Below, in pieces: positions 9,617 to 64,000 of a stretch of 64,000 nt of DNA. A program made the position numbers and the translations under genes. How positions within the stretch are numbered: position 1 is the first letter of the stretch; the number at the start of each line of letters is the position of its first letter. This DNA comes from Sideroxydans lithotrophicus. Its GTDB lineage: Bacteria; Pseudomonadota; Gammaproteobacteria; Burkholderiales; Gallionellaceae. The DNA lies in the NCBI GenBank assembly GCA_020723185.1, contig DYJI01000007.1, positions 59,003-123,002 on the forward strand. The letters are read 5' to 3'. The notes beneath the pieces are model-generated. The model saw nothing but the letters and a program-made list of their open reading frames with translations. It had not been told where the DNA came from and searched no databases.

Positions 9617-9625
9617 TGTTCCATT

Positions 9626-13838: not shown

Positions 13839-13858
13839 CCGGTTTTTTGCATCAAGGC

Positions 13859-13880: not shown

Positions 13881-13919
13881 GTCATTTATACTTCGGCCAT
13901 TCATCCCGACTGGCCATAC

Positions 13920-15164: not shown

Positions 15165-15186
15165 AACCAAGCACTGGAGGGAATAG

Positions 15187-47675: not shown

Positions 47676-49700
<2,025 letters not shown>

Positions 49701-49708
49701 GTCGAACC

Positions 49709-49750
49709 ATGAAAGTTAGCGTCCTCTTTGTCTGCATGGGCAATATCTGA
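49709..49750 (+). pseudogene. 5' stub of a low-molecular-weight protein-tyrosine phosphatase gene, interrupted at attL
   Basis: Translates MKVSVLFVCMGNI-stop. This is the VLFVCxGNICRS P-loop with the second Cys codon read as TGA, and integrase lies 52 nt downstream. Confidence 0.85.
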
Positions 49751-49769
49751 AACGCCCGCAGGCAATGGA

Positions 49770-49802
49770 CTTGTAAAACTTTAGTAAAATCCTTGTAAAG
49801 TC
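49770..49802 (+). repeat. Three 11-bp-period direct repeats, candidate integrase arm-type sites
   Basis: CTTGTAAAACT / TTAGTAAAATC / CTTGTAAAGTC between the junction and the int stop. Confidence 0.6.
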
Positions 49803-50912
49803 TTACCCGACTTTTACCCACTCGTCACCACGCACGTCGCGGTAAATTGCGGTGGTGGCAGCATCTTTGTGGCCAGCGATTGCTTGGGCATAATCCCCGC
49901 CTTGGCTCTCGGTGTAGAGTCGGATCGACAGGCTGCGGATTTCGTGGAAAGAGGGCGGGGTTTTGCCGTTCTCCCCCTTGATGCCGGCTAGGTCTCGTGC
50001 ACGGGCGAAACCCTTGGAGATGGTATCCACCCATACCTGATCACCAGGCTTGGATAGCGACCTAGGACGGGTGTGGTGAACAAGCCAGCGGCTGACGATG
50101 TTATCTCGGCATGCTTTGACGGTGGACGACAAGGAGAAACCAGCTATGCAGGTGTCGAGAGGGATGCTGACCTTGTTTTTGGTCTTACCTTGAATGACGT
50201 AGAGCCGATCATCAATCCATGCGGTCGAGTCTTTTCCACGCCGGAATTCGAGGGCTGCGATATCCTCCCTGCGCTGAGAGGTGAGCAAGGCCAGCTCCAT
50301 GGCTCGCGATATCCATGCATCAAGCTTCAAAGCCTGTTCGTAGATAAGCATGAAGTCTGGCAGTGTTAGGCGAGATCGATTGACTACGACTGTGGGCGCT
50401 CGTGTTTTTGCTGCAAGATTGTCTTCAGCCCAGCCTTCCTCAACGGCATCTTTCCAAATGTCCACTGCAGCTGAACGCATTGCTAGAGCCATGCGGGGGC
50501 GATCTTCGTAGCTATCCAGCACCTCTACCAATTGTCGCACCTTGATTTCTGAAAGATGGGTACCGGCCCCCAATGCCTTCTCCCATGCGCGGCCAGTGCT
50601 AGCTTTGTTTTTCAGAGTGTTCGCGGCAAGCTTGCGCTTCTTCTCACACAATTCAAGATGGCGCGACAGTACGCGACCAAATGTTGGAGAGCTTGGTTTG
50701 TTCTCGACGATGGTAGATAGACGCGTTGTGGCAATACTTGCATAGATAGCGCTGTTCAGTGCCATCGTGTCTGCTATTGCCTGCTCTTTGTTGGATCCGA
50801 GACCATGGCGCTTTCCGGAGCGAGGATCGCGATAGGCGTAATACACCTTGCCAGAGGTTTTATCCTCGGTGCGGTATAGATTCATTGGCAAATTGTGACG
50901 ACGTGGCCTCAT
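49803..50912 (-). CDS. int: Lambda-type tyrosine integrase with N-terminal arm-binding domain
   Basis: N-terminal RPRRHNLPMNLY..YYAYRDPRSGK; catalytic R (SQRRED), K, HxxR (FHEIRSL), GH and Y (YRDVRG). Confidence 0.95.
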   Translation of the reverse strand: MRPRRHNLPMNLYRTEDKTSGKVYYAYRDPRSGKRHGLGSNKEQAIADTMALNSAIYASIATTRLSTIVENKPSSPTFGRVLSRHLELCEKKRKLAANTLKNKASTGRAWEKALGAGTHLSEIKVRQLVEVLDSYEDRPRMALAMRSAAVDIWKDAVEEGWAEDNLAAKTRAPTVVVNRSRLTLPDFMLIYEQALKLDAWISRAMELALLTSQRREDIAALEFRRGKDSTAWIDDRLYVIQGKTKNKVSIPLDTCIAGFSLSSTVKACRDNIVSRWLVHHTRPRSLSKPGDQVWVDTISKGFARARDLAGIKGENGKTPPSFHEIRSLSIRLYTESQGGDYAQAIAGHKDAATTAIYRDVRGDEWVKVG

Positions 50913-51127
50913 GCCGCGTGGAGTATTTGCAGTGCGCGTGGTGACATTTCCATATTAGTGCATTGTACAACCACTGGAGTGCGGACCGCATTCTCGTCCA
51001 CCATGTAGCAGGTACCAACTTTTTCGGCGCCTGCAATCTGTCCTGTGGCCGCCCACGAGCGCAATATTCTGATTGATGGAGAGGGGCTATAGTGGCGGCG
51101 CCCCCAGTCTTGAAGGGTGACTTTCAT
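50909..51127 (-). CDS. xis: Excisionase (lambda Xis-like)
   Basis: 72 aa; TLQDWGRRHYSPSPSIRILRSWAATGQI; GGAG RBS; ATGA coupling to int. Confidence 0.85.
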   Translation of the reverse strand: MKVTLQDWGRRHYSPSPSIRILRSWAATGQIAGAEKVGTCYMVDENAVRTPVVVQCTNMEMSPRALQILHAA

Positions 51128-51155
51128 GGCGTTTACTCCAGAATTAACGCCGATG

Positions 51156-51196
51156 AGTGTAGAGCACTAAACCCTTAAAGGTCAAGAAGACTAAAC
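51156..51196 (-). promoter_or_regulatory. xis-int promoter overlapped by two 16-bp operators
   Basis: Minus strand TTGACC-N18-TACACT; operators at 51157-51172 and 51181-51196 match those at 52256-52318. Confidence 0.8.
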
Positions 51197-51209
51197 CCGC
51201 AAGGCAAAA

Positions 51210-51497
51210 TTAAGTAGATTTTCCAGAATTTCTAGCGAGTCGATCGGCTTGTCGGTCCAGACTTCTGGACGTGGCGGCCAAGCTGGTGGCGGTTGCCCGG
51301 ATGAGTTCAAGCACGTCATCTGCTGTGTCGACAGGCTGCCAATCTTCCGGCTTTGTGTGGCCAGATACCACCAAAGGATCTTCCATCATGCGCGTGCGGA
51401 AATCCTCATATGCCACCTGAGCCAATCTCTTGGCGCGTCTGTTGATGCGCGCAATCTGGCTATTGGTGAGCTGTGGCTGAATGGGAGTGTTCGCCAT
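51210..51497 (-). CDS. Hypothetical 95-aa protein downstream of the antisense RNA (candidate antirepressor/effector)
   Basis: AGGA RBS and ATG 51497; no family recognised; position matches that of C4-controlled genes. Confidence 0.65.
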   Translation of the reverse strand: MANTPIQPQLTNSQIARINRRAKRLAQVAYEDFRTRMMEDPLVVSGHTKPEDWQPVDTADDVLELIRATATSLAATSRSLDRQADRLARNSGKST

Positions 51498-51549
51498 GAT
51501 GGCTATCCTGGGCCTGGTTGGTTTTCACCGTCACTGATTGGAATGAGGA

Positions 51550-51620
51550 GGGTGGCAATACGGGTTGACAGACCGGAACCAAGGAACCGGCAGAGCTTTC
51601 GCTCTCCCACACTGCCACCC
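51550..51620 (-). ncRNA. C4 (P1/P7) / CI (P4)-like antisense RNA
   Basis: Three-way junction: 15-bp closing stem GGGTGGCAGTGTGGG/CCCGTATTGCCACCC, AGAGC-GAAA-GCTCT hairpin, (G)CCGG-loop-CCGG(T) hairpin and single-stranded CTGTCAA. The loop and bulge are complementary to an upstream site. Confidence 0.82.
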
Positions 51621-51644
51621 AATAGGGGGCGTGTTTACGGACAT

Positions 51645-51668
51645 AAAAAAGCCGCGGTGCAGGCGGCT
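51645..51668 (-). terminator. Rho-independent terminator between the antisense target and the antisense RNA
   Basis: Minus strand AGCCGC-CTGCACC-GCGGCT followed by TTTTT. Confidence 0.75.
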
Positions 51669-51674
51669 GATCCG

Positions 51675-51693
51675 CTTGGTTCCGAGCTGTCAA
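51675..51693 (-). promoter_or_regulatory. Antisense target site (a1/b1- or seqA-like)
   Basis: TTGACAG-CTC-GGAACCAAG pairs with CTTGGTTCC-GGT-CTGTCAA of the RNA (18 of 19 positions, including one G-U). Confidence 0.8.
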
Positions 51694-51723
51694 ACTCGAC
51701 CGGCAATTTGTGCTGGCCCGCGC

Positions 51724-51752
51724 AGTATGCCTATCAGCGAATTTTGTGTCAA
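51724..51752 (-). promoter_or_regulatory. Near-consensus sigma70 promoter driving the antisense-RNA transcript
   Basis: TTGACA-N17-CATACT; no GTTTAG operator overlaps it. Confidence 0.8.
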
Positions 51753-51886
51753 AAGTGGAAAGGCTCTATCAGGCAACCAATTTGAGGGTAATTTTGGCGG
51801 TAACTCTGATTGCGGTTTTGCTTGCGAGGTAACTGTGTGCGAGCAGCACAGAGAATAGCTTCAGTTGAATTTGAAGCTGAATAACG

Positions 51887-52255
51887 TTATTGGGTCGCCT
51901 GCTTTCTTTGGGTTTGGGGAGCGCCACTATCTCCGTCTGGTTCAGCGAGCGGAGTAATGATTTTGACAGCATCTTTCCGACGGCTTTCGCTCATTGCCTC
52001 CATGATCTTCATTGCCTGGCGAATACTTGGATCAAGCTTCATAGGGCCATCTCCAAGCATCATCCAGCGAGCACTAAACCCAGTGGTTTCCTCGAGCTTG
52101 TATGCATAACGGGGGGCGAAAGACTTAATCAGCCCGGACTGGAGCTGATTCGCAACTGACTTGGACATCCCGCAAAGCTTGCCGAACTCGGTGTCCTCAT
52201 CGATTCCGAGCTCTTGTTTGACGATGGCAATGCGCTCGGGGATTGTTGTTTTCAT
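51887..52255 (-). CDS. CI-like XRE repressor without an S24 peptidase domain
   Basis: 122 aa; N-terminal HTH pattern and FSARWMMLGDG motif; divergent from the cro-like gene. Confidence 0.8.
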   Translation of the reverse strand: MKTTIPERIAIVKQELGIDEDTEFGKLCGMSKSVANQLQSGLIKSFAPRYAYKLEETTGFSARWMMLGDGPMKLDPSIRQAMKIMEAMSESRRKDAVKIITPLAEPDGDSGAPQTQRKQATQ

Positions 52256-52319
52256 GTTTAGACATTAAAACAATTCAAGTTTAGAAGGATTGACTGTCGC
52301 AGGTTTAGTGTTCTACACT
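52256..52319. promoter_or_regulatory. OR-like region with three 16-bp operators and divergent promoters
   Basis: GTTTAG-N4-TAAAAC (52256), GTTTAG-N4-ATTGAC (52279), GTTTAG-N4-CTACAC (52303); rightward promoter TTGACT-N18-TACACT. Confidence 0.8.
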
Positions 52320-52325
52320 GAAAAC

Positions 52326-52547
52326 ATGGACAGCGAGGAACTCAAAAAACATCGGGCACTAATCGAGCAGATAGGCACCGTGCCCCTCATGGTGATGTTC
52401 GACATCAGCAAGGGGGCGATATCTCAATGGCGCAGCAATGGCATCCCAAAGGCTCGCCTGATGTATCTGGAATTGAGTCATCCAGAATTGTTTTCTGACT
52501 CTCCAAAGTCCAAATCGTCAAAAAAGCCACGCAAGGAAACACTATGA
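52326..52547 (+). CDS. Cro-like HTH protein
   Basis: 73 aa; FDISKGAISQWRSNGIPKARLMYL is a typical Cro/transcriptional regulator pattern. Confidence 0.8.
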   Translation: MDSEELKKHRALIEQIGTVPLMVMFDISKGAISQWRSNGIPKARLMYLELSHPELFSDSPKSKSSKKPRKETL

Positions 52548-52783
52548 GTGGCAGCAATACCAGTTTGAACGCGCGCAAATCAGGTGACGGTTGTTTGCTC
52601 AGGTGTCTCCTTCACACGTTATCTGAGTCGCTGCGAGGGGTATGGGTGCCCCGGGCAGTAACACTGCTGCGCGTTCCCCTTTCTAGGTTCGCTCGGAATA
52701 CACAGAGCGAATCACAACCTCAAGACTACAACAAATCATCTCACTGGGTGCTGGTCGCCTCACCATCGAAGGATCATCGATGA
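52544..52783 (+). CDS. Hypothetical 79-aa protein at the cII-equivalent position
   Basis: ATGA overlaps with both cro and rep; no family recognised. Confidence 0.45.
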   Translation: MSGSNTSLNARKSGDGCLLRCLLHTLSESLRGVWVPRAVTLLRVPLSRFARNTQSESQPQDYNKSSHWVLVASPSKDHR

Positions 52784-53874
52784 GGCAAAGGACTATCAGT
52801 GACGACTTCTGGCGCGACTCACAAATATGGGGATTGAGCCAAGAGGATACTGCGACCCTGCTGTATCTACTCACCAGCCCATCCTCCAACATCATCGGCT
52901 GTTACCGCGTGGTGTGGCGGATAGCTGCCGCAGAGATGGGCTGGACCGCCGATCAAATGCTAGTTGTGGTCAAGCGCCTGCAGGAGAAAGACCTCATTGA
53001 ATACACAGATTCAGGCTGGGTCTGGGTGAAGATCTGGTGGCGGCATAACTCCACGGCCGTTGCCCTGAATCCCAAGTCGAAGCTCATCAAGCATGCGCGG
53101 AATCAGTTTGCCGACATCCCAAGAGATTGGCTGGACGCCTTCGGGAAGAGCCTGGAAGCGCTTGGGATCAACACGCGCGAAATCGGGTTTCCAAGCCCCA
53201 TCAAGGCGGCACCAGATGCCCCATCTAATACCCCATCTAATACCCCATCTAATACCCCTTCTGATGCCTCATCACATGCCTCATCAGATGCCTCATCAGA
53301 TGCCTCATCAGATGCCTCATCAGATGCCCCATCGGAAAACGTGAAAACCCATCAACAACGGGGTTTGGATGCCCCATCAGATGCGGCACCAGATGCCCCA
53401 GGGGATGGGGCCGGGGGTAACAGGTATCTGGTATCTGGTAACACCACCACCACAAGCTCCTCCTCCCAAGATGGCAAACCCGTGGTGGTGGTGCCAGATT
53501 TATTTTTTCCACCCCCAACCCCCCAACCCGAGCGTGACTCGATCCAGGCGGTATTGGTCAGCAGCGGTGTCGCCGAGGAATTCTGGCAGATGCTCGTTGA
53601 TGAGCTGTACGGCGCTCGCATGCATCGAGAAATCAGCAATCCGGTGGGCTACATCCGCGGGATGGCCGAACGGGCGATCAGCGGCACCTTTACCCCGGAA
53701 CGCGGCATCAATGTGGCGAAGAAGCGGGAAGAGGCTGCCGCTCAGGCACGGCAAGACGAGGCACAAAACAAGGCATTTCTGGACAGCCAACGCCCAGCAG
53801 ACGAAGTGCTGAGCCGCCTACCAGCTCGCACAAGCGCTTTCTTGGAAAAGATGACGGGAGGACATTCGAAATGA
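52780..53874 (+). CDS. Phage-type replication initiator-like protein
   Basis: N-terminal ISDDFWRD...LLYLLTSPSSNIIGCY...AAAEMG winged-helix pattern; central repeat tract; C-terminal ISNPVGYIRGM. Confidence 0.7.
   Translation: MRQRTISDDFWRDSQIWGLSQEDTATLLYLLTSPSSNIIGCYRVVWRIAAAEMGWTADQMLVVVKRLQEKDLIEYTDSGWVWVKIWWRHNSTAVALNPKSKLIKHARNQFADIPRDWLDAFGKSLEALGINTREIGFPSPIKAAPDAPSNTPSNTPSNTPSDASSHASSDASSDASSDASSDAPSENVKTHQQRGLDAPSDAAPDAPGDGAGGNRYLVSGNTTTTSSSSQDGKPVVVVPDLFFPPPTPQPERDSIQAVLVSSGVAEEFWQMLVDELYGARMHREISNPVGYIRGMAERAISGTFTPERGINVAKKREEAAAQARQDEAQNKAFLDSQRPADEVLSRLPARTSAFLEKMTGGHSK
53215..53400 (+). repeat. Intragenic 12-bp tandem repeats (iteron-like) plus a small inverted repeat
   Basis: Ten in-register units at 53215-53334 (AATACCCCATCT x2-3, GATGCCTCATCA x4-5), then AAACCC...GGGTTT, then further GATGCCCCATCA-like copies from 53368. 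Confidence 0.85.
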
Positions 53875-54179
53875 GCACCACCAATTCCTTGCAAAAGGAC
53901 ATCGTGACGCTGAATCGGCGATTCCTGTTGGTTGTCCAGCAGATGGCCAACGCAAAGCATCCTCTCTTGGCCCCCTGTGTTCCTGGCTGGCTGATGCAGA
54001 AAGTGCGCAACATGACGCTTGAGGAGATCGATGCACTTGCAGAAGACATGATCGCACCTTGCTTCCATCTGAATCTTCAGGAGGGGCACTTCGACCAGAT
54101 GAAAGAGATCCCTCAAGGATCTCGACGCAAGGCGTATTTGGCCAATGTGGTCGCCACTCACTCGGCTTCCCATGCTTAA
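53871..54179 (+). CDS. FlhD-like activator subunit (SetD/AcaD analogue)
   Basis: DIVTLNRRFLLVVQQMA...MTLEEIDALA...CFHL pattern; precedes the FlhC-like gene. Confidence 0.72.
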   Translation: MSTTNSLQKDIVTLNRRFLLVVQQMANAKHPLLAPCVPGWLMQKVRNMTLEEIDALAEDMIAPCFHLNLQEGHFDQMKEIPQGSRRKAYLANVVATHSASHA

Positions 54180-54675
54180 CGAGACCATTGCACAAACGCA
54201 GGCTTTTGCCACGACCCTGATCAGGGATGGCATGCGCATAGCGCTTGTGCACTCCATTACCGGAATTGCCCGGCACCATCTGCTGGATTTGCGCAAATCG
54301 ATACATGGGGACGATGCGCCGATGCAGGGGCGGATGCCGAACGACACCATGGCGTACATCAAGAGCGGCCAGTCCACAGTTGCGCTCGCGACGGTGGTTG
54401 CGGTGTACGTTGGGGCAGAGAAAAAACACAAGTCGCCGGTTGAAGCGTTTATGGACGCATGGGCGGTGGCAAAGTTGTTTGCAGATGGCGCGACTCCGCT
54501 GGACATCAATGCCGCTTGGTATGCGGTGCGCGATGTCAAAGCCGGCCTGATTACATGGGCCTACTGCAAAAACTGCAAGGCAGGGTATCTACTCGATACC
54601 AAGCAAACAAAAAAGACAGACATCTGTCCTTACTGCGGCGCTCAGAAACAAAAGCAGATCGAGGTGGCCCAGTGA
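54172..54675 (+). CDS. FlhC-like activator subunit (SetC/AcaC analogue)
   Basis: GMRIALVHSITG N-terminus, LDINAAWY, C-terminal Zn site CKNC...CPYC. Confidence 0.8.
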   Translation: MLNETIAQTQAFATTLIRDGMRIALVHSITGIARHHLLDLRKSIHGDDAPMQGRMPNDTMAYIKSGQSTVALATVVAVYVGAEKKHKSPVEAFMDAWAVAKLFADGATPLDINAAWYAVRDVKAGLITWAYCKNCKAGYLLDTKQTKKTDICPYCGAQKQKQIEVAQ

Positions 54676-55130
54676 GCGCGCTCAACTCTTTCAGACTGCT
54701 GGCCATAGCCATGTGCTTCTTCAGCGCTGGCGCATTCGCAGACGACCCAATGTGCTTCGAGAAGGCCTCCGAGCGTTATGGGGTGCCAGCAGAACTGCTA
54801 CGGGCAATCTCTCATGTGGAATCGCGTGGCAATCCTCACGCGAGAAACGAAAACAAGAACGGCTCAACCGACATCGGCCATATGCAGATCAATTCGTCCT
54901 GGCTGCCGACTCTCTCCAAGTATGGGATTTCCAAAGCTCAATTGATTGAGGCATGCACCAATACATTTGTTGGTGCATGGATCTTGGCCGACAACATTTT
55001 CCGCATGGGATATCGGTGGGAAGCCATCGGCGCATACAACGCAAGGAACCCAGCCAAGGCCGCCCGCTATGCAAGGAAGGTGGCTGCGGCATTGCATGCA
55101 CAAACCAGACAAACAGGGGCTCTGAAGTGA
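54672..55130 (+). CDS. Soluble lytic transglycosylase (LtgX-like)
   Basis: LLRAISHVESRG, DIGHMQINS, AIGAYN. Confidence 0.92.
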   Translation: MSALNSFRLLAIAMCFFSAGAFADDPMCFEKASERYGVPAELLRAISHVESRGNPHARNENKNGSTDIGHMQINSSWLPTLSKYGISKAQLIEACTNTFVGAWILADNIFRMGYRWEAIGAYNARNPAKAARYARKVAAALHAQTRQTGALK

Positions 55131-55780
55131 ACTGCCGGCACATATCAATTCCAATGCTCATTGTCGCGCTTTCGGGGTGCGCAAGTAGCCTCGAAACCAT
55201 TACCCCAGCTGAACCAGCACGCATTGGGTATCTGGATGGGAAGTTCAGGGTGTGTCGGGAGGACTGTCCAGTTCCCACACCCAAAGAGTTGGACGATTCA
55301 ACTCCAATGGAACACATGGTCGCCGAGATGGTTAAGAAGTCCATGAGCGCGCCCACCCCTCCAACTATCGATGCTCAGAAAGTGCAAGGCGTTTCGGAAA
55401 AGCGCACAGAGCCAACAACCGCAGCTCAGCAGTATGAGATTTATTTCGACTTTGGCATGAGTCGGCCCAACGCAGAGGGCGAAAACGAGCTCAGAAGATT
55501 CGAGGAGAGTATTCGAGGGTTGAATGACCTGAAGATCGAGCTTGTCGGCAGAACAGACGACATCGGAACAAGCAAATTCAATCGACGGCTTGCAAGAAAG
55601 CGAGCCTTAAACATTGCCGACTGGATCAAAGCGCACGGCATCAAGGCGCGGATCGCACTTTCCACCAAAGCCGAGTGTTGCCGCGCAGCGCCGTATGACA
55701 AGCGCGAGCCGACCTTCAAAGAAAAAAGAAGGGTAACGATCATTTCTCGGCAGATAGGGGAGGGGCAAATGAACAAGTGA
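55127..55780 (+). CDS. OmpA-domain lipoprotein (Yag-like)
   Basis: GTG start, LSGC lipobox, IYFDFG, GRTDDIG..FN..LARKRA, RRV. Confidence 0.85.
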   Translation: MNCRHISIPMLIVALSGCASSLETITPAEPARIGYLDGKFRVCREDCPVPTPKELDDSTPMEHMVAEMVKKSMSAPTPPTIDAQKVQGVSEKRTEPTTAAQQYEIYFDFGMSRPNAEGENELRRFEESIRGLNDLKIELVGRTDDIGTSKFNRRLARKRALNIADWIKAHGIKARIALSTKAECCRAAPYDKREPTFKEKRRVTIISRQIGEGQMNK

Positions 55781-55830
55781 AAACCGCTCCTGGCAATACC
55801 AAGTTTTCTAACCACACAAGGAATTACACG

Positions 55831-56121
55831 ATGAAATCGCAACAACTGAAAAAGCAACTTCTTCTGGCGCTGGCCATGCTCGTTCCGTTCTCCGCATTCG
55901 CGGGCACGACCGGCGCCGAGTTCCTGGCTCTCTACAACTGGATCTTGGGCATCGCAACAGGCTATGCCGCACGCGCAATCTCGATTGCGGCCATCGTGAT
56001 CGGTGCACTCATGTCCCTCGGCCGCGGTAGCCCGATGCCGATTCTGGCCGGTATCGGATTCGCAGTGTTCCTGGCATATCTACCGGGCGTTGTGAACGGC
56101 TTGCTGACCGCAACGATTTAA
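55831..56121 (+). CDS. traA: Conjugative pilin TraA
   Basis: Leader ending AFA-GTTGAEF followed by two hydrophobic helices; AAGGA RBS. Confidence 0.85.
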   Translation: MKSQQLKKQLLLALAMLVPFSAFAGTTGAEFLALYNWILGIATGYAARAISIAAIVIGALMSLGRGSPMPILAGIGFAVFLAYLPGVVNGLLTATI

Positions 56122-56125
56122 CTTT

Positions 56126-56159
56126 GCCCGACCGACCCGTTAGCCACGGGTCGGCGGGC
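56126..56159 (+). terminator. Strong hairpin after the pilin gene (no U tract)
   Basis: GCCCG-A-CCGACCCGT / ACGGGTCGG-CGGGC. Confidence 0.55.
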
Positions 56160-56185
56160 TGCATATATCTAAAAGGAGAATCACA

Positions 56186-56392
56186 ATGCTGTCGAACAAG
56201 GATTACATCAAGAACCTCATCATCGCGGCAACTTTCATTGCGCTCGGGATATTGCTTCCCGGATCGACGATAACCGATCAAGCCGCATTCACTGCAAACA
56301 TCACCGGCATTTCTATGGGCATCGGCATCGGCTGGCTCATCAAGACGGTCTTTGAGCAAAAGCCGGTGAAGCAGGAAAAGCAAGAAGCATAA
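56186..56392 (+). CDS. Small two-TM hypothetical protein
   Basis: AAGGAG RBS; two hydrophobic segments and a charged tail. Confidence 0.7.
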   Translation: MLSNKDYIKNLIIAATFIALGILLPGSTITDQAAFTANITGISMGIGIGWLIKTVFEQKPVKQEKQEA

Positions 56393-56405
56393 GGGGCTCG
56401 GCAAA

Positions 56406-56693
56406 ATGGAACCTGGTTACATTCCTCGAACACTTGACCATCAAGAGAAGTTCTTCTTCTGGGAAGCGGACCAATTCATTCTTGCCGTGCTGATTATCGG
56501 TCTTGGCGTGTCACTCGGAATGATGCTGTCCGGAATCATCGGCGGAGGGCTGGTGGCTTATGCCTACGGGCGGCTGAAGTCTGGAAAACATCCCAAATTC
56601 GCCGCCCATCTTATGTACTGGTGGCTGCCAAGCGCCATATCTACCAAGACCCAGATAACGCCACCATCTGATTGTCGTTATTACCTAGGCTAA
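56406..56693 (+). CDS. traL: F-type conjugal transfer protein TraL
   Basis: IPRTLD..EKFFFWEAD, HLMYWWLP, PPS..RYYLG. Confidence 0.9.
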   Translation: MEPGYIPRTLDHQEKFFFWEADQFILAVLIIGLGVSLGMMLSGIIGGGLVAYAYGRLKSGKHPKFAAHLMYWWLPSAISTKTQITPPSDCRYYLG

Positions 56694-56695
56694 CC

Positions 56696-57286: not shown

Positions 57287-57920
57287 CCTACAGGTTCAAG
57301 CGGCCCAAATGGTGTTCCAAGGGTCACCAACAGATGCTACGACCGCGCTGGTCTCTCGGCACGAGCCGAATCTGATCACGGTCGATGGGAAAAAGATTCG
57401 GCGCATCCACGGTGCGCAGGGATTGTTCACCATCACCCCGGAACCCGACACCGGCTCGGCCTGGCTCAAGCCAACGTCTGACAAGCCGATGATGAGTGCC
57501 TACATCACGGACGAAGATGGGCAGCACTACAAGTTGCTGCTGAAGGTCGAGGACATTCCGGCAGAAACGATCATCGTCAAAGGGCGAGGATTGAAGGGGC
57601 TGTCAACGTCTGCAAGCGGCAAAAATGAACCGAGAAACGACGATATCATCAATGCCACTGTCGCTCTGTTCAATGGCCACGGGGATCGAAAGAGCGAAGT
57701 CATCCCGCTTTGGAAAGGGACGAGATTTGAGCTCGTGAGAACCATAGATCTTCGCGGACTGCGCGGCGAGGCATATGTCCTGACCAATACATCCAACAAA
57801 CGAATCGTCATGGATGAGCGCGAATTCTACCGTGCTGGTATCCAGTCGGTGTCCCTTGAAAAGCCAACTCTGGAAGCTGGTCAATCCACTCGCGTCATCG
57901 TCATCAGCGAGGTTGAATGA
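57246..57920 (+). CDS. traK: F-type secretin-like TraK
   Basis: Signal peptide, VSRHEPNLITV; located between traE and traB. Confidence 0.85.
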   Translation: MKKIFLVSALLLNSLQVQAAQMVFQGSPTDATTALVSRHEPNLITVDGKKIRRIHGAQGLFTITPEPDTGSAWLKPTSDKPMMSAYITDEDGQHYKLLLKVEDIPAETIIVKGRGLKGLSTSASGKNEPRNDDIINATVALFNGHGDRKSEVIPLWKGTRFELVRTIDLRGLRGEAYVLTNTSNKRIVMDEREFYRAGIQSVSLEKPTLEAGQSTRVIVISEVE

Positions 57921-59131
57921 TGTCCATTTCCGCAAAACTGGCCAGCATGAGCCCCAAGAACCGCCAGTATCTGCTCTTGGGTGGGGGCGCAGCTGCGATA
58001 TTGGTTCTCTCGTTTATATCCGCATCCCTGATGGGCGACCCAACACCGCCTGCGGCGACAGCCTCCAACCAAGATGCTGAGCCAACGAATATCGCCACTC
58101 CGGGTGCTGCTGCCGATCCAAAGGATATTTGGATGGAGCAGTCATCAATGCAGATGCAGCAGATGAACGATGTCATCAAGGGGCTGAAGGAGCAGATGGC
58201 CAACATGGAGGCACCGAAACCAGCGGCAACGCCTGCTGAATCGCTGTTGCCGCCACTGCCCCCACTTGTGCCACCTCAACAAGTTCAGGCAACTGCTGTG
58301 CCTGAAATCGAACCGCTGCCACCAGTGCCGGCACCAGAACCTGGGATTGCATCCTTCGAGGTGAGCCAAGCCCCGACCGCGCCGAAAGCCGAAGAGGTCC
58401 AAGACACCAAGATGGGATATATCCCTGCGGGCACATTTGTTCGTGTCGCACTCTTGGGAGGCCTTGATGCACCCACTGGGGGGCAGGCGCAGAACAACCC
58501 CCACCCGATCCTGATGCGCGCACAAGATAACGCCTTCCTGCCCAACAGGTACCGGTTTGAGATCAAGGAATGCTTTCTGCTGGCGTCTGCCTATGGCGAC
58601 ATCAGTTCAGAAAGGGCCATTGCCCGGCTGGAGAACATTTCCTGCATCCGCAATGATGGGACGGCAGTGGATGTCAATGTGAAGGGCTATGTGGTTGGCG
58701 AAGACGGGAAGGCCGGAATGCGCGGCAGGCTCATCAGCAAACAGGGCCAAGTGCTGGCCAACGCACTCCTTGCCGGAATTGGCTCAGGCATCGGGCAAGC
58801 ATTCCAGGCAGGCACGACTACGCAATCGGTGAGTGCGCTTGGGTCTACCTCAACCGCCAACACTGGGCAGCAAATTCAGAACGGTGTTGGCGCTGGGGTG
58901 GGTAAGGCGCTGGACCGGCTAAGTCAATACTACATTGGTCTTGCAGAGAAGCTTTTCCCAATCATCGAGGTTGATGCAGGAAGAACCGTGGAGGTCGTAT
59001 TCACAAAAGGCTTCTCGTTGGAGACCAACCAACAGGAGCAGACCGGAACCTACAGTGATCTGTGGAAGCGCGCGAAATCTGTAATGGGCGACTCTGTGCC
59101 TTTAAATGATGCCAACCCGGTCAACCCATAA
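57917..59131 (+). CDS. traB: VirB10-like TraB
   Basis: N-terminal TM, Pro-rich linker, IPAGTFV..LLGGLDAP, GDISSERA, GKAGMRGRL. Confidence 0.92.
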   Translation: MMSISAKLASMSPKNRQYLLLGGGAAAILVLSFISASLMGDPTPPAATASNQDAEPTNIATPGAAADPKDIWMEQSSMQMQQMNDVIKGLKEQMANMEAPKPAATPAESLLPPLPPLVPPQQVQATAVPEIEPLPPVPAPEPGIASFEVSQAPTAPKAEEVQDTKMGYIPAGTFVRVALLGGLDAPTGGQAQNNPHPILMRAQDNAFLPNRYRFEIKECFLLASAYGDISSERAIARLENISCIRNDGTAVDVNVKGYVVGEDGKAGMRGRLISKQGQVLANALLAGIGSGIGQAFQAGTTTQSVSALGSTSTANTGQQIQNGVGAGVGKALDRLSQYYIGLAEKLFPIIEVDAGRTVEVVFTKGFSLETNQQEQTGTYSDLWKRAKSVMGDSVPLNDANPVNP

Positions 59132-59144
59132 CAAAGGAATTTTG

Positions 59145-59870
59145 ATGAAACTGAATGTGAAAATTATCGCTGCATTTCTGATGGCGCTTGTAACTACGGT
59201 TCATGCGGAGCAGGGCGACCTGTCTGCAATCGCCACCAAGCTGAGTGCGCTTTATCCGGCCACCCAGTTCAATGAGATTCGCCCATCGAAGTTTGATGGG
59301 CTGTATGAAGTCGTGATGGGGAAGAACATTGGCTACACAGACAGCGAGGGTCGATATTTCCTGTTTGGTCACGTATTTGACATGCAGACGCGACAGGACC
59401 TGACGCAGCAACGCATCGATGAGCTGAACAAGGTGAACTTCTCCGAGTTGCCCCTGAAGGATGCCATCAAAGAGGTGCGTGGCAATGGGCAACGCAAACT
59501 GGTTGTGTTCTCTGACCCGGACTGTCCTTTCTGCAAGAAGCTGGAGCGCGAGTTGCCCCAACTGGATAACGTCACGATCTACACATTCCCGCTACCACTC
59601 GAAGGATTGCATCCGGATGCGCCTCGAAAAGCAAAATCGATCTGGTGTTCAGGCAAGAGGCAGGCTGCCTGGCATGACTATTTGGTGAGCGACAAGCAGC
59701 CGACCGCGAACACGGACTGCGCCAACCCGATTGACCGAAACATTCAGCTGGGACAGAGGCTGGGCATCAACGGCACGCCGACCCTTGTGGCAGAAGATGG
59801 CCGTGTCATGCCTGGCGCAGCTTCTGCCGCTCAAATCGAAAACTGGTTGAACCAAAAAGGGAGTAACTGA
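59145..59870 (+). CDS. dsbC: DsbC-like thiol:disulfide isomerase
   Basis: FSDPDCPFC, GINGTPT. Confidence 0.92.
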   Translation: MKLNVKIIAAFLMALVTTVHAEQGDLSAIATKLSALYPATQFNEIRPSKFDGLYEVVMGKNIGYTDSEGRYFLFGHVFDMQTRQDLTQQRIDELNKVNFSELPLKDAIKEVRGNGQRKLVVFSDPDCPFCKKLERELPQLDNVTIYTFPLPLEGLHPDAPRKAKSIWCSGKRQAAWHDYLVSDKQPTANTDCANPIDRNIQLGQRLGINGTPTLVAEDGRVMPGAASAAQIENWLNQKGSN

Positions 59871-60373
59871 TGCGCAAATTCCTACCACTCGTCTGCTTGT
59901 TGATGGCCGGATGCGCCGGAATCGACAGCGATAGCCACTTCAAGTGCAAGGCACCGGAAGGAATCGGGTGCTCCTCGTTGTCCGGCACCTATGCCAATGC
60001 GATCGAAGATAACTTGCCCGGCTCTCCTGTCACGAAGTCAGCCACCTACGATAGCGGCGAAGAAAAGGAGCGCTCCATTACTGGAGTTGCCCCGAGCACC
60101 GGCATGCCAGTCTTGAGCGAACCTGTTGTGCTACGCATCTGGGTCGCCCCTTGGGAGGATAGCCGGAAGGTATTGCACGATCAGGCATATCTGTATGCGG
60201 TCGTCGATCCTGGACACTGGCAAATCGAGCACAACAAAAAACGCATATCTGAACAGTATCGCGTGCTTACTCCGGCGCAGCGGAAAGAGACCGCTCCCCA
60301 AGAGCCCAGACCTCGGCCCCAGTCATTTCAACCGAGCGGCGCCGAATCTCAACAGCCCAATGGTGTGAACTAA
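59870..60373 (+). CDS. traV: Lipoprotein TraV
   Basis: MAGC lipobox, FKC...C, VLRIWVAPWED. Confidence 0.9.
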   Translation: MRKFLPLVCLLMAGCAGIDSDSHFKCKAPEGIGCSSLSGTYANAIEDNLPGSPVTKSATYDSGEEKERSITGVAPSTGMPVLSEPVVLRIWVAPWEDSRKVLHDQAYLYAVVDPGHWQIEHNKKRISEQYRVLTPAQRKETAPQEPRPRPQSFQPSGAESQQPNGVN

Positions 60374-60374
60374 A

Positions 60375-62963
60375 GTGTCTTTCGTCAAAACACTCAAAGA
60401 GATCTTTCTTCACGAAAGATACGGCCGGCCGGATGCGATACCGTTGAATTTGATTCAGCAGTTCGCCTGTTTCCCGAAGCTTACTGGAATCCTTCCATAC
60501 TACGGCTGGCTGGAGAACGAGCGCATGTTCATTCTGGACCAAGGTGGTTTTGGCGAGAAAGAGCAGTTCTCCATTGGATTCTCCATCGAGATTGATCCTC
60601 AGACCGGCGCGACGGACGAGATGGAGAAGATCCTGACAGGACTCTTTGACTCCTGCATGCCTGACGCCGGCATTCAGATATCGCTCTACGCCTCGCCAGA
60701 CATTCGGCCAATGCTTGAGCGGCAGGCCGCTACGGTCAAAGTTGCAGAGCTGGCCGAGATAGCAAGCCGCCGCAGCAAGTTCTATATGGGTGGTACAGCA
60801 AAATCCCTTTTCAATAACCGCACCTACCTGTTGCGTAACTACAGGTGCGTGGTGTCCGTTGCCTTGCCTCTATCCCCATTCGAGCAGGGAGATATTGAAA
60901 GCGCAATCAGGGTGCGGGAGAGCATCCACGCAACCCTGCGATCCGCTTACCTCGGGGGATTTGACTGGACGCCCGACCACCTGCTTGAGTTCGTAGGTGA
61001 CTTCTTCGATCACGAGCGCGTGTTCGCGCCGGAGAAGCGAGGGGAGTTGGACGTTAGCTACAACCCTGAACGGATACTCCGAGAGCAACTGTCGAACCGG
61101 GAGATTGCATCTTGTTTGAGCGATGAGGGGATTCGTTTCAGCAAGAGCGGCAGCAATGAAACCGTCATGCAATTGTTCTCAGTCAAGAATTACCCAAAGT
61201 ATTGCCGGCTCAGCCACATGGGAAGCCTGATCGGTGACCAATACCAGGCGGCTCTGTCGATGCCATGCCCGTTCCTTATCACCATGGGGGCGATTGTTCA
61301 GGACCATGAGTCAGCCCGAACATATGCCCAGATCAAGTCTGCACGTGCCACGCAAAGCGCTTCGTCGTACATGGCGCACTTCCAGCCTGAGTTGCACGAC
61401 AAGAAGCGCGACTGGGGCGTGGTGGTCAATGCCTTCGATAACGGCAAGGGCACGGTACGGCTCTATCACCAATTGCTGTTGCTCACCACCAAAGAGGATG
61501 CCTCTCGTGCAGAGTATGCGGCTCGATCTGTTTGGAGGGCGCGAGGCTTCGATCTGGCGCGAGACTATTACTTGCAACACCAAGCGTTTGCCGCATCAAT
61601 GCCCATGACGCTAGGCAGGCCACTGCAAGCCGACCTGAAAGCGTTTGGAAGGGCTTATACCAAGACTCTCGACAATGCCGTGATGACTTCCCCGCTGATC
61701 GGCGAATGGAAGGGCACAAAGAATCCTCTGATCACCCTGTTTGGTCGACGCGGCCAGCCGATGGGGTTTGACCTCTTTGACAACACTGGCGGCAACTACA
61801 ACTTTGCCGTTGCCGCTTTGTCTGGCTCGGGTAAATCCGTGTTCGTGAACGAAATGGCCTACCGGTACCGCGCCGCCAATACCAAGGTGTGGATCATCGA
61901 CGTGGGTCGCTCATACAAGAATCTGTGTGAGCTGATGGACGGTGAGTTCATCGAGTTCGCCGATGAGCGTCAGAATTCGCTCTGCCTCAACCCATTCTCC
62001 ATGGTGCAGGACATCAACAACGACATGGAGATGTTGCTTCCCCTGCTCGCAGAAATGGCCAGCCCACGTGAACCACTGAACAACTACTGCTACTCGGCGC
62101 TGGCCAGTGCGATCAAGCAAGTGTGGGAAGTCAGCGGCTCAGAATCAACCATCACGAGCATCTACGACTTGCTCCGAACCGGAAAGCTAAACGAGGATTC
62201 CGAAAGGGAGCAGGAGCTCACAAAGATGGCAATCGCCCTTGAGCCATTCACCAAGTATGGCGCTTACGCCAGCTACTTTGAGGGGGAGGCCAATATCCAG
62301 TTCACAAAGGACTTCGTGGTTCTTGAGCTGGAAGAGTTGAAGAGCAAGAAAGACCTTCAGGCCGTGGTGATGCAAATCATCATGTACCGCATCACCCAGG
62401 AAATGTACCTCGACCGCTCGCGCCGAAAGATCGTGATCATCGACGAAGCATGGGATCTGATGGGTAGCGGTAGCAGCGGGCACTTTATTGAGGCTGGATA
62501 TCGACGTGCGCGGAAGTACGGCGGTGCATTCGGCACGATCACGCAGTCCATCGAGGACTACTACAAGTCCGAATCGACCAAGGCCGCTATCAACAATGCC
62601 GACTGGCTGTTCCTGCTACGCCAGAAGCCGGAGAACATCGACCGGCTGGGGAAGGAGGGCAAGCTCACGATTGATGAATGGATGAAGCGCCAACTGTCAT
62701 CAATCACCACAGACCACGGCAATTACTCTGAGATCTTCGTGCATAGCCCGATGGGCTCCGGAATCGGCCGACTCATACTCGATCCATATTCGATGATGCT
62801 GTTCTCGACGCATGCGGACGACTTCGAGCGGATCAAGACAATGCGACAGAAGCACGGCATGACCGCCAACCAGGCGATTGCAAAACTGCTGGGAGAGGAG
62901 AAGAAAAGGACTGTCCACCGTCGCAGGGCATCCGATCTTGCTGTTTATAACGAAACCAACTGA
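60375..62963 (+). CDS. traC: VirB4-like ATPase TraC
   Basis: Walker A ALSGSGKS, IIDVGRSY, IDEAWDL, RRARKYGG. Confidence 0.95.
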   Translation: MSFVKTLKEIFLHERYGRPDAIPLNLIQQFACFPKLTGILPYYGWLENERMFILDQGGFGEKEQFSIGFSIEIDPQTGATDEMEKILTGLFDSCMPDAGIQISLYASPDIRPMLERQAATVKVAELAEIASRRSKFYMGGTAKSLFNNRTYLLRNYRCVVSVALPLSPFEQGDIESAIRVRESIHATLRSAYLGGFDWTPDHLLEFVGDFFDHERVFAPEKRGELDVSYNPERILREQLSNREIASCLSDEGIRFSKSGSNETVMQLFSVKNYPKYCRLSHMGSLIGDQYQAALSMPCPFLITMGAIVQDHESARTYAQIKSARATQSASSYMAHFQPELHDKKRDWGVVVNAFDNGKGTVRLYHQLLLLTTKEDASRAEYAARSVWRARGFDLARDYYLQHQAFAASMPMTLGRPLQADLKAFGRAYTKTLDNAVMTSPLIGEWKGTKNPLITLFGRRGQPMGFDLFDNTGGNYNFAVAALSGSGKSVFVNEMAYRYRAANTKVWIIDVGRSYKNLCELMDGEFIEFADERQNSLCLNPFSMVQDINNDMEMLLPLLAEMASPREPLNNYCYSALASAIKQVWEVSGSESTITSIYDLLRTGKLNEDSEREQELTKMAIALEPFTKYGAYASYFEGEANIQFTKDFVVLELEELKSKKDLQAVVMQIIMYRITQEMYLDRSRRKIVIIDEAWDLMGSGSSGHFIEAGYRRARKYGGAFGTITQSIEDYYKSESTKAAINNADWLFLLRQKPENIDRLGKEGKLTIDEWMKRQLSSITTDHGNYSEIFVHSPMGSGIGRLILDPYSMMLFSTHADDFERIKTMRQKHGMTANQAIAKLLGEEKKRTVHRRRASDLAVYNETN

Positions 62964-62975
62964 ATGGAGCCTGCT

Positions 62976-63179
62976 ATGAGCACAAATAAATCAAACTTGA
63001 AGCGCAAGGTGGTGCAGAACATCGTCCAGCGGTGCAAGGCAGAAGGAAAGCGAGCTAAGGAGATCGCAGCTGAACTGAAGGTCGCGGGCTACAAGGTATT
63101 CGTCGCCTCCTTCTGTTTTTGCGAAGAGATTGCATTTTTCGACACGACGCACGGTCTGCAGATCCGTGTTGTCGCCTGA
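62976..63179 (+). CDS. Small hypothetical protein after traC
   Basis: GGAG RBS; fills the traC-trbI gap. Confidence 0.5.
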   Translation: MSTNKSNLKRKVVQNIVQRCKAEGKRAKEIAAELKVAGYKVFVASFCFCEEIAFFDTTHGLQIRVVA

Positions 63180-63191
63180 TAAGGAATAGAA

Positions 63192-63557
63192 ATGTCAGTG
63201 TTTGCACATATAACCACGGGAGCCATCGCCGCTTCGCTTGCAATCGCCTCGATCGCTGGATGGCTCCATTTCCATCCATCGGGCCCAGTCGCTAAGGTGG
63301 ACATCATTGGGATTGTCACTGCGCAGCAAAAAAGCTTGGCCGCAAAGCTCAAGCCCGGCATGGATGAAAAGGCGCAATCTGAACTGATCAATCAAGCCTC
63401 CCGCTTTGGGAAACAACTCGATTCGGCACTTGCACAGGTCGCTGACGAGTGCCGATGCACACTCCTTAACTCTGCAGCCGTTGTCAGGGATGCTCCATCG
63501 GGGGCATTGCGAGACTACACGCAGCGGGTTGCTGAACTAGCTCAGGACAATAAGTAA
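63192..63557 (+). CDS. trbI: F-type TrbI-like protein
   Basis: N-terminal TM, VAKVDI..., LLNSAAVV..AP...DYT pattern of F-plasmid TrbI. Confidence 0.65.
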   Translation: MSVFAHITTGAIAASLAIASIAGWLHFHPSGPVAKVDIIGIVTAQQKSLAAKLKPGMDEKAQSELINQASRFGKQLDSALAQVADECRCTLLNSAAVVRDAPSGALRDYTQRVAELAQDNK

Positions 63558-63559
63558 TC

Positions 63560-64000
63560 ATGAGTTTTGCACGATCCTTGATGTGCATCTTCCTTGCGGC
63601 AACATTGCCGGCGGCAGCGCATGCTGTCGAGGGAAGGGATTACCCTTCGAGCATCGGATACTCATCCGAATGGAAGTGCACTGGGCAAGGGAAGTTCAGC
63701 TGGTACTGCGACGAAGAACCGGAAGTGGATGCCAGTTCACCTCAAGCACCATCGAGGAAGGCTGAGACGCGCGAAGAAATCGCAGTCAGGGAGCTAAAGC
63801 AAATCCGAAAGGATCTTGATGCAAAGCGCGCCCTTGCGGTAGTGCATCCAACCCCGGAAAACATTAAAGCCTATATGGCTGCACAACAAGTCGAGATCGA
63901 GCGCGCAGCCTACTTTGCGGACGTGTGGCGCCGGGTGCTGTGGCAGAACGCCGAGCTGAATCTCGGGGTTAAAAACCCGATGAACAATTCAGCTATCAAG
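63560..64000 (+). CDS. traF: F-type TraF (3'-partial; absent from the ORF track)
   Basis: Manual translation: signal peptide, FSWYCDEE, PTPENIKAYMAAQ...AAYFADVWRRVLWQNAEL; open to the window end. Confidence 0.8.
   Translation, partial: MSFARSLMCIFLAATLPAAAHAVEGRDYPSSIGYSSEWKCTGQGKFSWYCDEEPEVDASSPQAPSRKAETREEIAVRELKQIRKDLDAKRALAVVHPTPENIKAYMAAQQVEIERAAYFADVWRRVLWQNAELNLGVKNPMNNSAIK

Follow-up and report, generated by a model that had tools for sequence, protein, structure and literature searches.

The SXT/R391 group of integrative and conjugative elements (ICEs) and the IncA/C plasmids (activator AcaCD) are built on a common logic, also found at the locus described here, in which a lambda-like repressor stands divergent to an operon headed by cro and closed by an FlhDC-like activator, and their activator proteins SetC and AcaC do not match Pfam models (PMC4542580). 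Islands with a type IV secretion system (T4SS) like that of the gonococcal genetic island (GGI) have a MOBH TraI together with TraD, and FlhC homologues are often present in them (Pachulec 2014, PMC4207684). The Delftia phn island carries FlhC, a CI/LexA-like repressor, a MOBH TraI, an F-type T4SS and a P4-type integrase (Hickey 2012, PMC3318190). Among phage loci, the isrK locus of Gifsy-1 consists of a promoter, IsrK with a leaky terminator, a short open reading frame (ORF) and the antirepressor AnrP (PMC4825925). The present analysis concerns a 64,000-nucleotide stretch of contig DYJI01000007.1 (assembly GCA_020723185.1, Sideroxydans lithotrophicus; positions 59,003 to 123,002), referred to below as the window, and in particular the island that follows the host gene uvrB within it.

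The window probably contains the left 14 kb of an ICE lying downstream of uvrB, which would represent an undescribed family of the MOBH / F-type (MPF_F) superfamily with a phage-style switch. This superfamily also includes SXT/R391, the IncA/C plasmids and the GGI-like T4SS islands, and the element is a variant inside the known MOBH/F-type, FlhDC-regulated class, not a new kind. Its new features are a phage-type cI/cro-Rep early operon fused directly to flhDC and the T4SS, a non-cleavable repressor and, in one variant, a C4/isrK-type RNA circuit before xis-int, with a structured element upstream of rep. No published description of the family was found in a literature search, in agreement with an earlier note on this DNA whose author, a model working from the sequence alone, knew of no account of the combination. 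The host is an uncultured, iron-oxidiser-type, Gallionellaceae-like beta-proteobacterium of about 60% GC.

An island directly behind uvrB

Gene identities were taken from Pfam, PHROGs, NCBIfam and Rfam searches together with the ORF listing. The features at the left boundary are as follows.

47676-49700, plus strand: host uvrB, identified through the Pfam annotation of the same gene in the related locus L004
49701-49802, no strand assigned: attL region, with three tandem repeats resembling CTTGTAAAA at 49770, 49781 and 49792 (11-bp spacing)
49803-50912, minus strand: int, lambda-type tyrosine integrase with Arm-DNA-bind_1 (PF09003) and Phage_integrase (PF00589) domains
50909-51127, minus strand: xis, of the Exc family (PF07825, phrog_629), overlapping int by 4 bp

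The island begins directly past the stop codon of uvrB, and the GC content steps from about 0.60 in the host part to 0.53, with values of 0.51-0.575 from 49.8 kb to the window end, being even over 49.8-64 kb. With int and xis adjoining uvrB at this GC step, the arrangement is that of a recombinase and an excisionase at the end of a chromosomal island. The uvrB flank is common to the window and two related loci, L004 and L033, and the depth of the island contig is about that of uvrB in sequencing runs X1 and X3, as would be expected of a single integrated copy. Over its full length the integrase shares 36% identity with lambda Int and 39% with that of Pseudomonas phage LESphi3. The attL junction was placed approximately, near 49701. 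The three repeats beside it, found with Tandem Repeats Finder (TRF) and by pattern matches and kept in L004 and L033, are candidate arm-type Int sites (P' arm), since Int has the Arm-DNA-bind_1 domain and the layout is that of lambda attL.

Contigs of other populations match uvrB as far as 49685 or 49701 and then diverge, one of them running into a GC-rich hairpin after the stop codon. Metagenome contigs ending at 49685/49701 were not used as an empty attB, as they may equally represent the uvrB of other species.

A coupled and syntenic backbone from the switch to the transfer genes

To the right of int and xis, and beyond the RNA module treated below, the island consists of a repressor gene and a long series of plus-strand genes.

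51887-52255 (ATG at 52255), minus strand: cI, a short cI-like helix-turn-helix (HTH) repressor of 122 amino acids (aa), matching PHROG repressor families only
52256-52325, no strand assigned: switch region, with three GTTTAG(A/T) repeats from 52257, 52280 and 52304 (23-24 bp spacing)
52290-52319, facing cro: promoter-like TTGACT-18-TACACT, from the promoter scan
52290-52547 as an ORF (TTG at 52290; likely start ATG 52326), plus strand: small cro-like HTH gene (phrog_8008 at 2e-8, weak P22_Cro match)
52565-52679, plus strand: core of a conserved structured element inside 'orf79' (52544-52783), formed of a closing stem and two hairpins, the loop CUCCUU being invariant
52780-53874, plus strand: rep, replisome-organiser type, 364 aa, its N-terminus matching the DnaD-like loader phrog_1701
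53213-53333: 12-bp tandem repeats inside rep (TRF)
53871-54179, plus strand: flhD-like activator subunit gene, from profile evidence
54172-54675, plus strand: flhC-like activator subunit gene (PF05280, 45 bits against a cut-off of 27; NF009365 match under its cut-off)
54672-55130, plus strand: slt, lytic transglycosylase, LtgX-like (PF01464)
55127-55780, plus strand: ompA, OmpA-domain lipoprotein (PF00691)
55831-56121, plus strand: traA, pilin (NF041281, 53 bits against a cut-off of 50; PF04956 match just under its cut-off)
56186-56392, plus strand: orf68, small membrane ORF, family-conserved by tblastn across loci and with codon bias consistent with a coding gene
56406-59131, plus strand: traL, traE, traK and traB (PF07178, PF05309, PF06586/PF23536, PF03743)
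59145-59870, plus strand: DsbC-type disulfide isomerase (PF10411 and PF13098)
59870-62963, plus strand: traV and traC (PF09676, PF11130, PF19044)
62976-64000, plus strand: a pair of small conserved ORFs (62976-63179 and 63192-63557), then traF, of which the window end leaves only the 5' part, from the gene table of L001 (identical TraC)

The gene string from int-xis to tra that the earlier note had read from the sequence was borne out by the four database searches, and Int/Xis of the lambda type, a divergent pair of cI and cro genes, a C4 RNA and a T4SS of the F type, all of which it named, are real. The overlaps it listed are likewise exact: cro/orf79, orf79/rep and rep/flhD overlap by 4 bp as ATGA, flhD/flhC by 8 bp, and flhC/slt and slt/ompA by GTGA (4 bp). 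The genes from cro to ompA are thus translationally coupled, and a single transcript would be expected; the chain of overlaps stops at ompA because traA most likely starts at 55831.

A Rep protein search returned about 80 relatives, nearly all metagenomic, and a scan of species-representative genomes with a Rep profile gave 29 loci, nearly all from metagenome-assembled genomes of Gallionellaceae (Sideroxydans, Gallionella) or from other Nitrosomonadales. When the window proteins were mapped onto these loci, the order orf79-rep-flhD-flhC-slt-ompA-traA-orf68-traL-E-K-B-dsbC-V-C-orf71-orf121 was found to be kept in about 20 of them, while a small cI-like gene was divergent from rep in every locus, with a cro-like gene between the two in several. 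The left ends differ, with at least six different modules among the approximately 20 syntenic loci. Relatives other than L004 and L033 lie beside tRNA genes or guaA and have other integrases, AlpA-like excisionases and Bro-N-type antirepressor-like genes, and some carry Phage_pRha genes.

These observations bear directly on whether the island might be a defective lambdoid prophage remnant (int to rep) that lies by chance beside an independent tra island with a hidden junction, the case that the earlier note had named as telling against a single element. The phage-like character of the int-xis-orf95-C4 module, which is swapped between relatives, and the phage homologues of Rep would both be expected from such a remnant. 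Against it, the cro-ompA genes overlap codon to codon, Rep-flhDC-slt-ompA-tra occur together in about 20 loci whatever the integrase or the insertion site, GC is even over 49.8-64 kb, and there are no virion genes in any of these loci. Since the backbone recurs in this way and is coupled codon to codon, the region is one element, as had been claimed, and the prophage-remnant explanation is set aside as scarcely credible. The reported absence of capsid, tail and terminase genes was upheld as well: the island, as much as 20 kb of its continuation and 10 large ORFs taken as a sample of positions 1-47000 showed no virion genes, the sampled ORFs being host genes (BamA, FCSD, sulfate permease and others).

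Between the two activator subunits the evidence is uneven. The FlhC-like protein matches a Pfam family above its cut-off, as listed above, whereas FlhD was called from a profile of 11 family members, for which the three best PDB matches were all FlhD (E 0.004-0.012), and from a comparison with E. coli FlhD by hhalign (E 1e-4, probability 54%). The flhD-like call therefore appears weaker than the flhC-like call, yet specific.

A GC-rich hairpin (GACCGACCCGTTAGCCACGGGTCGG) lies at 56122-56185, directly 3' of the pilin gene traA, and may set the excess of pilin, by attenuation or by stabilising the mRNA.

A repressor without an autocleavage domain

The cI-like repressor has no Pfam match and no S24 peptidase domain (PF00717), and the cI-like proteins of relatives are similarly short (120-155 aa). 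Because the S24 domain is absent, the repressor, as judged from its domain content, cannot be of the RecA-cleaved SetR/lambda type. The three GTTTAG(A/T) repeats between cI and cro are putative operators; they and the promoter-like site are kept in L004 and mostly or partly in L033. The cro homologue of L004 was called as a 73-aa protein.

A replication gene with internal repeats

Rep shows weak matches to the STY4528 family and RP-C_C and does not fall in the lambda O family of Pfam. In an alignment of 31 Rep proteins, two conserved terminal domains, the N-terminal one highly so, flank a variable middle of low complexity. At the DNA level this interdomain linker is tandemly repeated in every clade, with clade-specific units: GATGCC(C/T)CATCA in the clade of the window and a GGGTAT/ATACCC-type unit in another. 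The possibility that the repeats are a mere TRF artefact was rejected on this recurrence at the same position in all clades. Their interpretation as iterons, made in the earlier note, is plausible and unproven, and a lambda-O-like origin inside the initiator gene would be a fair reading of the arrangement.

The repeat array is also polymorphic in nature, since assemblies are interrupted there (L001 begins at 53299, and L033 stops early in rep) and a copy-number variant occurs in run X27, where a joint at 53220->53276 skips 55 bases and inserts 7 others.

A full-length Rep homologue of 33% identity was found in a temperate tailed phage, L035 (IMGVR_UViG_2808606380_000009, 1-11295), which has tail fibre, baseplate and integrase genes, which is evidence of the replication gene's phage ancestry. 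As this was the only phage matched when IMG/VR was scanned with the Rep profile, the family does not appear to be filed there as a virus.

A structured element in the position of cII

The earlier note placed a cII-like gene, in brackets, between cro and rep, and this part of its layout was not sustained: the position has no coding signature and is probably a conserved structured RNA, not cII. In 'orf79' changes fall about equally on all codon positions, those at third positions being 1.3 times the mean for first and second positions, against 2.6-4.0 times in the coding controls rep, flhD, flhC and orf68. The 115-nt core, whose homologues were collected by blastn and a covariance model, is 82-94% identical among relatives even where Rep is only 44% identical. 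Its minimum free energy is -49.3 kcal/mol (z-score -3.1), and of the 38 predicted pairs, 97.6% of alignment cells are paired and 5 pairs have compensatory changes, a level of pairing reached by 0/500 shuffles and compared with 32-49% in slid controls. The G-U pairs favour the plus strand, and the invariant CUCCUU apical loop could pair with the Shine-Dalgarno sequence of rep. There was no Rfam match to the element.

The covariance model detected 12 copies, 9 of them directly before rep. The three off-site copies come after traG and a Rha-like gene and before the RPA-mobI-traD block, and represent a second copy in some relatives:

L036 15331-15441: off-site copy of the structured element
L045 2092-2203: off-site copy of the structured element
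L048 24-135: off-site copy of the structured element

The element may control translation as a leader, be processed into an antisense RNA, prevent termination or act as a signal in single-strand DNA. Having been taken for an ORF, it represents a candidate new cis-regulatory RNA of mobile elements.

An exchangeable excision module with a C4-family RNA

Between cI and xis, on the same strand, lies a module whose parts are as follows.

51724-51752, minus strand: promoter-like TTGACA-17-CATACT before the isrK-like leader, 10/12 consensus positions
51645-51717, minus strand: isrK-like leader (RF01394, 37 bits, under its gathering score of 50)
51668-51650: intrinsic terminator closing the isrK-like leader, from the terminator scan
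51550-51627, minus strand: C4-family antisense RNA (RF01695, 51 bits against a gathering score of 45)
51210-51497, minus strand: orf95, the family-less gene downstream of C4

The end of the isrK-like match is followed after 18 nt by C4, and C4 after 52 nt by the start of orf95. C4 is also above its gathering score in the relatives (50.8 bits in L004, 46.4 bits in L033), the isrK-like leader is kept in both, and both hexamers of the promoter-like site are invariant in the three loci. An isrK-C4 tandem is also annotated in Xylella. The second hairpin loop of C4 and the single strand that follows it (51589-51562) are complementary to positions 51720-51668 of the leader; with a loop-only probe, used because folding of the full-length C4/target duplex unfolds C4 and is uninformative, this duplex scored -34.9 kcal/mol in the window against -21.3 +/- 3.0 in shuffles, with 0/2000 shuffles reaching it. 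The complementarity is also strong in L004 and L033 (0/1000 and 10/1000 shuffles, respectively). The same C4 segments are complementary to two boxes around the Shine-Dalgarno sequence of orf95, a pairing that is beyond shuffles in L004 (0/1000) and weaker in L033 (36/1000). Candidate complementarity boxes of this C4/orf95 circuit are CUGUCAA and UUCCUUGG. The layout of the module, i.e. promoter, isrK-like leader with terminator, C4 and target, is of the P1/Gifsy-1 type, and its function may be similar by analogy. Because cI is transcribed towards orf95-xis-int, the module would at least shield the excision genes from read-through.

The product of orf95 has no match in Pfam, NCBIfam, PHROGs or phage genomes, and its homologues, 69-71% conserved, are found in L004 and L033 only. 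A single-sequence AlphaFold2 (AF2) model predicted a hairpin of two long helices (predicted local distance difference test score, pLDDT, 70). By its position alone, orf95 is a candidate antirepressor or excision co-factor.

The int-xis-orf95-C4 set occurs only in the window, L004 and L033, all of them behind uvrB, and is an exchangeable phage-derived module, not a family trait. The antisense layer proposed in the earlier note accordingly exists, with a C4 RNA in a P1/Gifsy-1-type layout, in these three loci only; of the modules whose co-occurrence it had suggested searching for, Rep, FlhDC-like and TraC are found together in about 20 loci, and the lambda-type Int with C4 in the same three.

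This restricted distribution raises an alternative, which is possible if somewhat doubtful, in which the C4/isrK-like unit is an insulator or a relic of the int module with no say in transfer, induction being exerted elsewhere, e.g. by Rha/Bro-type antirepressor-like genes. C4 is absent from most family members, others of which carry Bro-N-like or Phage_pRha genes, and the Shine-Dalgarno pairing in the window is weak, all as such a relic would predict. On the other side, the promoter, the terminator, C4 and the leader complementarity have been kept in three loci though orf95 is only about 70% identical.

The remainder of the element and its distribution

In contigs with an identical TraC, traF, traH and traG come next and are followed by cargo, consisting of MazE/PIN, a Sel1 protein, and a type ISP restriction enzyme or a UvrD/methylase set. 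Elements with a TraC 90-99% identical to that of the window have a further block of RPA (PF10134), MobI (PF19456), a 130-aa ORF, TraD, a DtrJ-like gene and YdjM, which in L061 and L068 (TraD about 75% identical) continues with an S26 signal peptidase, a MobH relaxase, traW, traU, trbC and traN. A metagenome scan with TraD extended the close relative L042 only into more cargo, and a search with the pSTJ2 MobH relaxase gave, among the 120 matches listed, none closer than about 50% to the relaxases of L061/L068.

A second initiator-type gene, RPA (PF10134), stands just upstream of mobI in three relatives, so that the family may have two replication functions or RPA may serve transfer:

L036 16747-17613: RPA
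L038 16063-16956: RPA
L039 20404-21282: RPA

There are two cargo hot spots, after traG and after ydjM, and their defence and addiction genes differ between near-identical elements. The cargo includes MazE/PIN, the type ISP restriction enzyme, UvrD-PDDEXK with a methylase and a TnsA-like protein, an Eco57I/BsuBI-PstI restriction-modification pair, DUF3800, and a secreted nuclease with a 1160-aa ATPase-like protein.

L001 16326-19665: cargo stretch
L037 13795-23455: cargo stretch
L039 15563-20118: cargo stretch
L042 12900-21764: cargo stretch

At least 50% of the sampled 31-mers of 50900-55200 are held by 20 DNA runs (X1-X20) from 13 studies, and four runs hold all of them; the habitats are groundwater, subsurface, mine drainage, hot-spring, wastewater and landfill metagenomes.

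The occurrence of two initiator-type genes in relatives, the DnaD-like Rep and RPA (PF10134), together with toxin-antitoxin cargo and the fact that the closest annotated T4SS relative is a plasmid, pSTJ2, would suit a conjugative plasmid caught integrated or alternating between states, in which Rep and RPA are maintenance replicons and the switch governs copy number or replication, not transfer. However, all of the approximately 25 family loci with a flank are chromosomal (tRNA genes, guaA or uvrB) and have an integrase, the island depth is about the chromosome depth, no par genes were seen in the parts read, and the rep family has no member in 72,556 plasmid records, where tblastn gave one weak DnaD match in Brevibacillus. 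A plasmid of this kind is therefore considered unlikely. A megablast of the island against plasmids was also discarded as a source of relatives, as it returned only 40-59-bp SLT-motif matches in Burkholderia plasmids, and the one inspected (H1) was unrelated (MPF_T / type IV pilus, T4P).

That the T4SS secretes DNA or protein, like that of the gonococcal genetic island, in a domesticated locus with no self-transfer is less probable still, and very unlikely overall. Its attraction is the gene order ltgX-like, ompA/yag-like, traA, traL..dsbC-traV-traC, which is GGI-like (PMC4207684). Yet an intact int/xis pair and a repressor switch are kept, MobI and TraD are present in relatives, the chromosomal sites differ in related hosts, and near-identical copies were found in at least 20 metagenomes from 13 studies, a combination that fits active mobility. 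An ICE remains the probable identity of the island.

Elsewhere in the window, a local GC dip (0.52-0.56) at 10000-15200 covers two genes and may be another acquired segment.

10602-11879: FadL/TodX-type outer-membrane gene
11928-15197, minus strand: ORF of 1089 aa with low GC at third codon positions (GC3 0.64)

A possible transfer programme

A scheme that would unite these features can be put forward by analogy with phages and with SXT/IncC elements. In the integrated state, the short non-autocleavable cI-like repressor would bind the three GTTTAG operators and shut the rightward promoter. Once repression is lifted, one long coupled operon would be expressed, comprising cro, the structured leader RNA, Rep, FlhD/FlhC, slt-ompA-traA and the remaining T4SS genes. 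The switch would be locked by Cro, Rep may fire replication of the excised circle at the repeats in its own gene, as lambda O does, and FlhDC, like SetCD/AcaCD, would turn on the distant transfer operons RPA-mobI-traD-dtrJ and relaxase-traWU-trbC-traN. Excision would be run by the exchangeable phage module of promoter, isrK-like leader with terminator, C4, orf95, xis and int, where pairing of C4 with the leader and with the orf95 ribosome-binding region would keep orf95-xis-int silent despite incoming transcription from cI. As orf95 holds the antirepressor place of P1 (icd/ant) and Gifsy-1 (orf45/anrP), its product may set off induction by inactivating the non-cleavable repressor.

That the whole transfer programme is built in this way as a phage early operon (non-cleavable cI/cro gate, leader RNA, lambda-O-like Rep whose gene contains the origin, FlhDC master activator and T4SS), with a C4 circuit over an antirepressor-like orf95/xis/int in one variant, is put forward only tentatively. 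Jointly with that reading, and on the same tentative footing, a C4 circuit controlling orf95/xis/int would be the first C4-family riboregulator shown to govern the excision and induction of a conjugative element.

Transcript data are suggestive of the repressed state. Within 49000-64000, metatranscriptome X25 has contigs only at 51679-52319 (depth 12.7), 51313-51535 and 49993-50150, all 100% identical, the small ones falling in orf95 and int, and no contig from 52320 to 64000; the contig end at 51679 bears an Illumina adapter. The sole contig in metatranscriptome X28 is inside cI (51899-52197).

Several observations weigh against this account of the element. The RNA data are unstranded, low-depth Logan contigs, and two further RNA-labelled runs, X26 and X27, have thin coverage across the whole element, reflecting either DNA carry-over or real expression. 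The relaxase, TraD, traW/U/N, attR and the right end of the window copy are deduced from relatives, the MobH relaxase and TraW, U, N and TrbC having been seen only in the more distant L061 and L068. The rep repeats also encode the low-complexity linker (PSNT/DASS) and may be only that. Because the first tra genes sit in the same operon as flhDC, their expression would not need a master activator. Finally, pairing between C4 and the Shine-Dalgarno region of orf95 does not reach significance in the window (272/2000 shuffles), and orf95 resembles no known antirepressor.

The family extends the SXT/IncC-type design of a phage switch plus an FlhDC activator to uncultured beta-proteobacteria that take part in iron and sulfur cycling in groundwater and mine drainage, as an element that is near-identical in many metagenomes and carries changing defence cargo. 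One conserved transfer backbone with varied integration and induction modules, including a repressor that is not cleaved through RecA and the C4/isrK circuit, forms a natural series, and how non-SOS conjugative elements decide on transfer is thereby made approachable with reporters.

Comparison with known systems

As in the phage loci P1/P7 immI (c4-icd-ant), Gifsy-1 isrK-orf45-anrP and the P4 CI RNA immunity system, a C4-family RNA lies here in an operon leader, with a complementary box upstream, candidate boxes at the downstream ribosome-binding site and an isrK-like leader directly upstream. The a1b1 / a'b' / a2b2 pairing logic of P1 immI would be matched by C4, the upstream leader and the downstream boxes. 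However, the downstream genes are orf95-xis-int, not the icd/ant of P1/P7 or the anrP of Gifsy-1, and the carrier is a conjugative element, not a phage as in all of these cases. The lambda early region (cI, cro-cII-O-P, with the origin inside O) likewise has a divergent repressor/cro pair with three spaced repeats, a replication organiser with interdomain tandem repeats, an Int/Xis pair with an arm-binding domain, and three tandem repeats beside int. Unlike in lambda, the S24 domain is absent, what is probably an RNA element takes the place of cII, and the late genes are replaced by a T4SS; no homologues of N, Q or P were found in the window with Pfam or PHROGs.

The closest annotated T4SS is that of plasmid pSTJ2 of Sulfuricystis multivorans (NZ_AP018720.1), with TraC 66% and TraD 65% identical, which shares slt-ompA-traA-traL..traG, an FlhC-family gene, S26-MobH-traW-U-trbC-N, and traD with a DUF4400 gene. 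It differs in being a plasmid with ParAB, with no cI/cro-rep module, no adjacent flhD-flhC-slt fusion and no rep homologue found. The GGI-like T4SS of beta-proteobacteria have the same order ltgX-(yag)-traA-traL-E-K-B-dsbC-V-C (PMC4207684), as does the phn island; TraC identity to most of these plasmid systems of beta-proteobacteria is only about 37-42%. Whereas in the GGI-like systems traC is followed by a contiguous trbI-traW-U-trbC-N-F-H-G, here traC is followed by two small ORFs and traF-H-G, the S26-relaxase-traWU-trbC-N block being placed elsewhere, with the relaxase, in relatives. In contrast to both the GGI-like and phn islands, flhD and flhC are both present and translationally coupled to slt, and the cI/cro-RNA-rep flank is conserved, no conserved flanks appearing in PMC4207684 or PMC3318190.

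With SXT/R391 and IncA/C the family shares, beyond the regulatory logic, a T4SS of the F type that includes dsbC, and its relatives add MobI, a TraD of the SXT type, a TraJ/DtrJ-like protein and, in the more distant ones, MobH, so that the distinct ICE type announced in the earlier note stands as an undescribed family and not as a kind apart; a tyrosine integrase and Xis are also common to SXT/R391. The FlhC-like protein matches Pfam FlhC and flagellar FlhC and is of a branch nearer to canonical FlhC, and a plasmid tblastn did not detect the AcaC of IncC. In SXT/R391 insertion is at the 5' end of prfC by IntSXT, whereas here it is by uvrB, with relatives at tRNA genes or guaA, and the repressor, unlike SetR, has no S24 LexA-like autocleavage domain. 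Further differences from SXT/R391 are that the regulatory module adjoins int/xis and fuses directly to the first tra operon, that there is a phage-type Rep with internal repeats, accompanied by RPA in relatives and by the C4/isrK-like RNA module in one variant, and that the hosts are Gallionellaceae.

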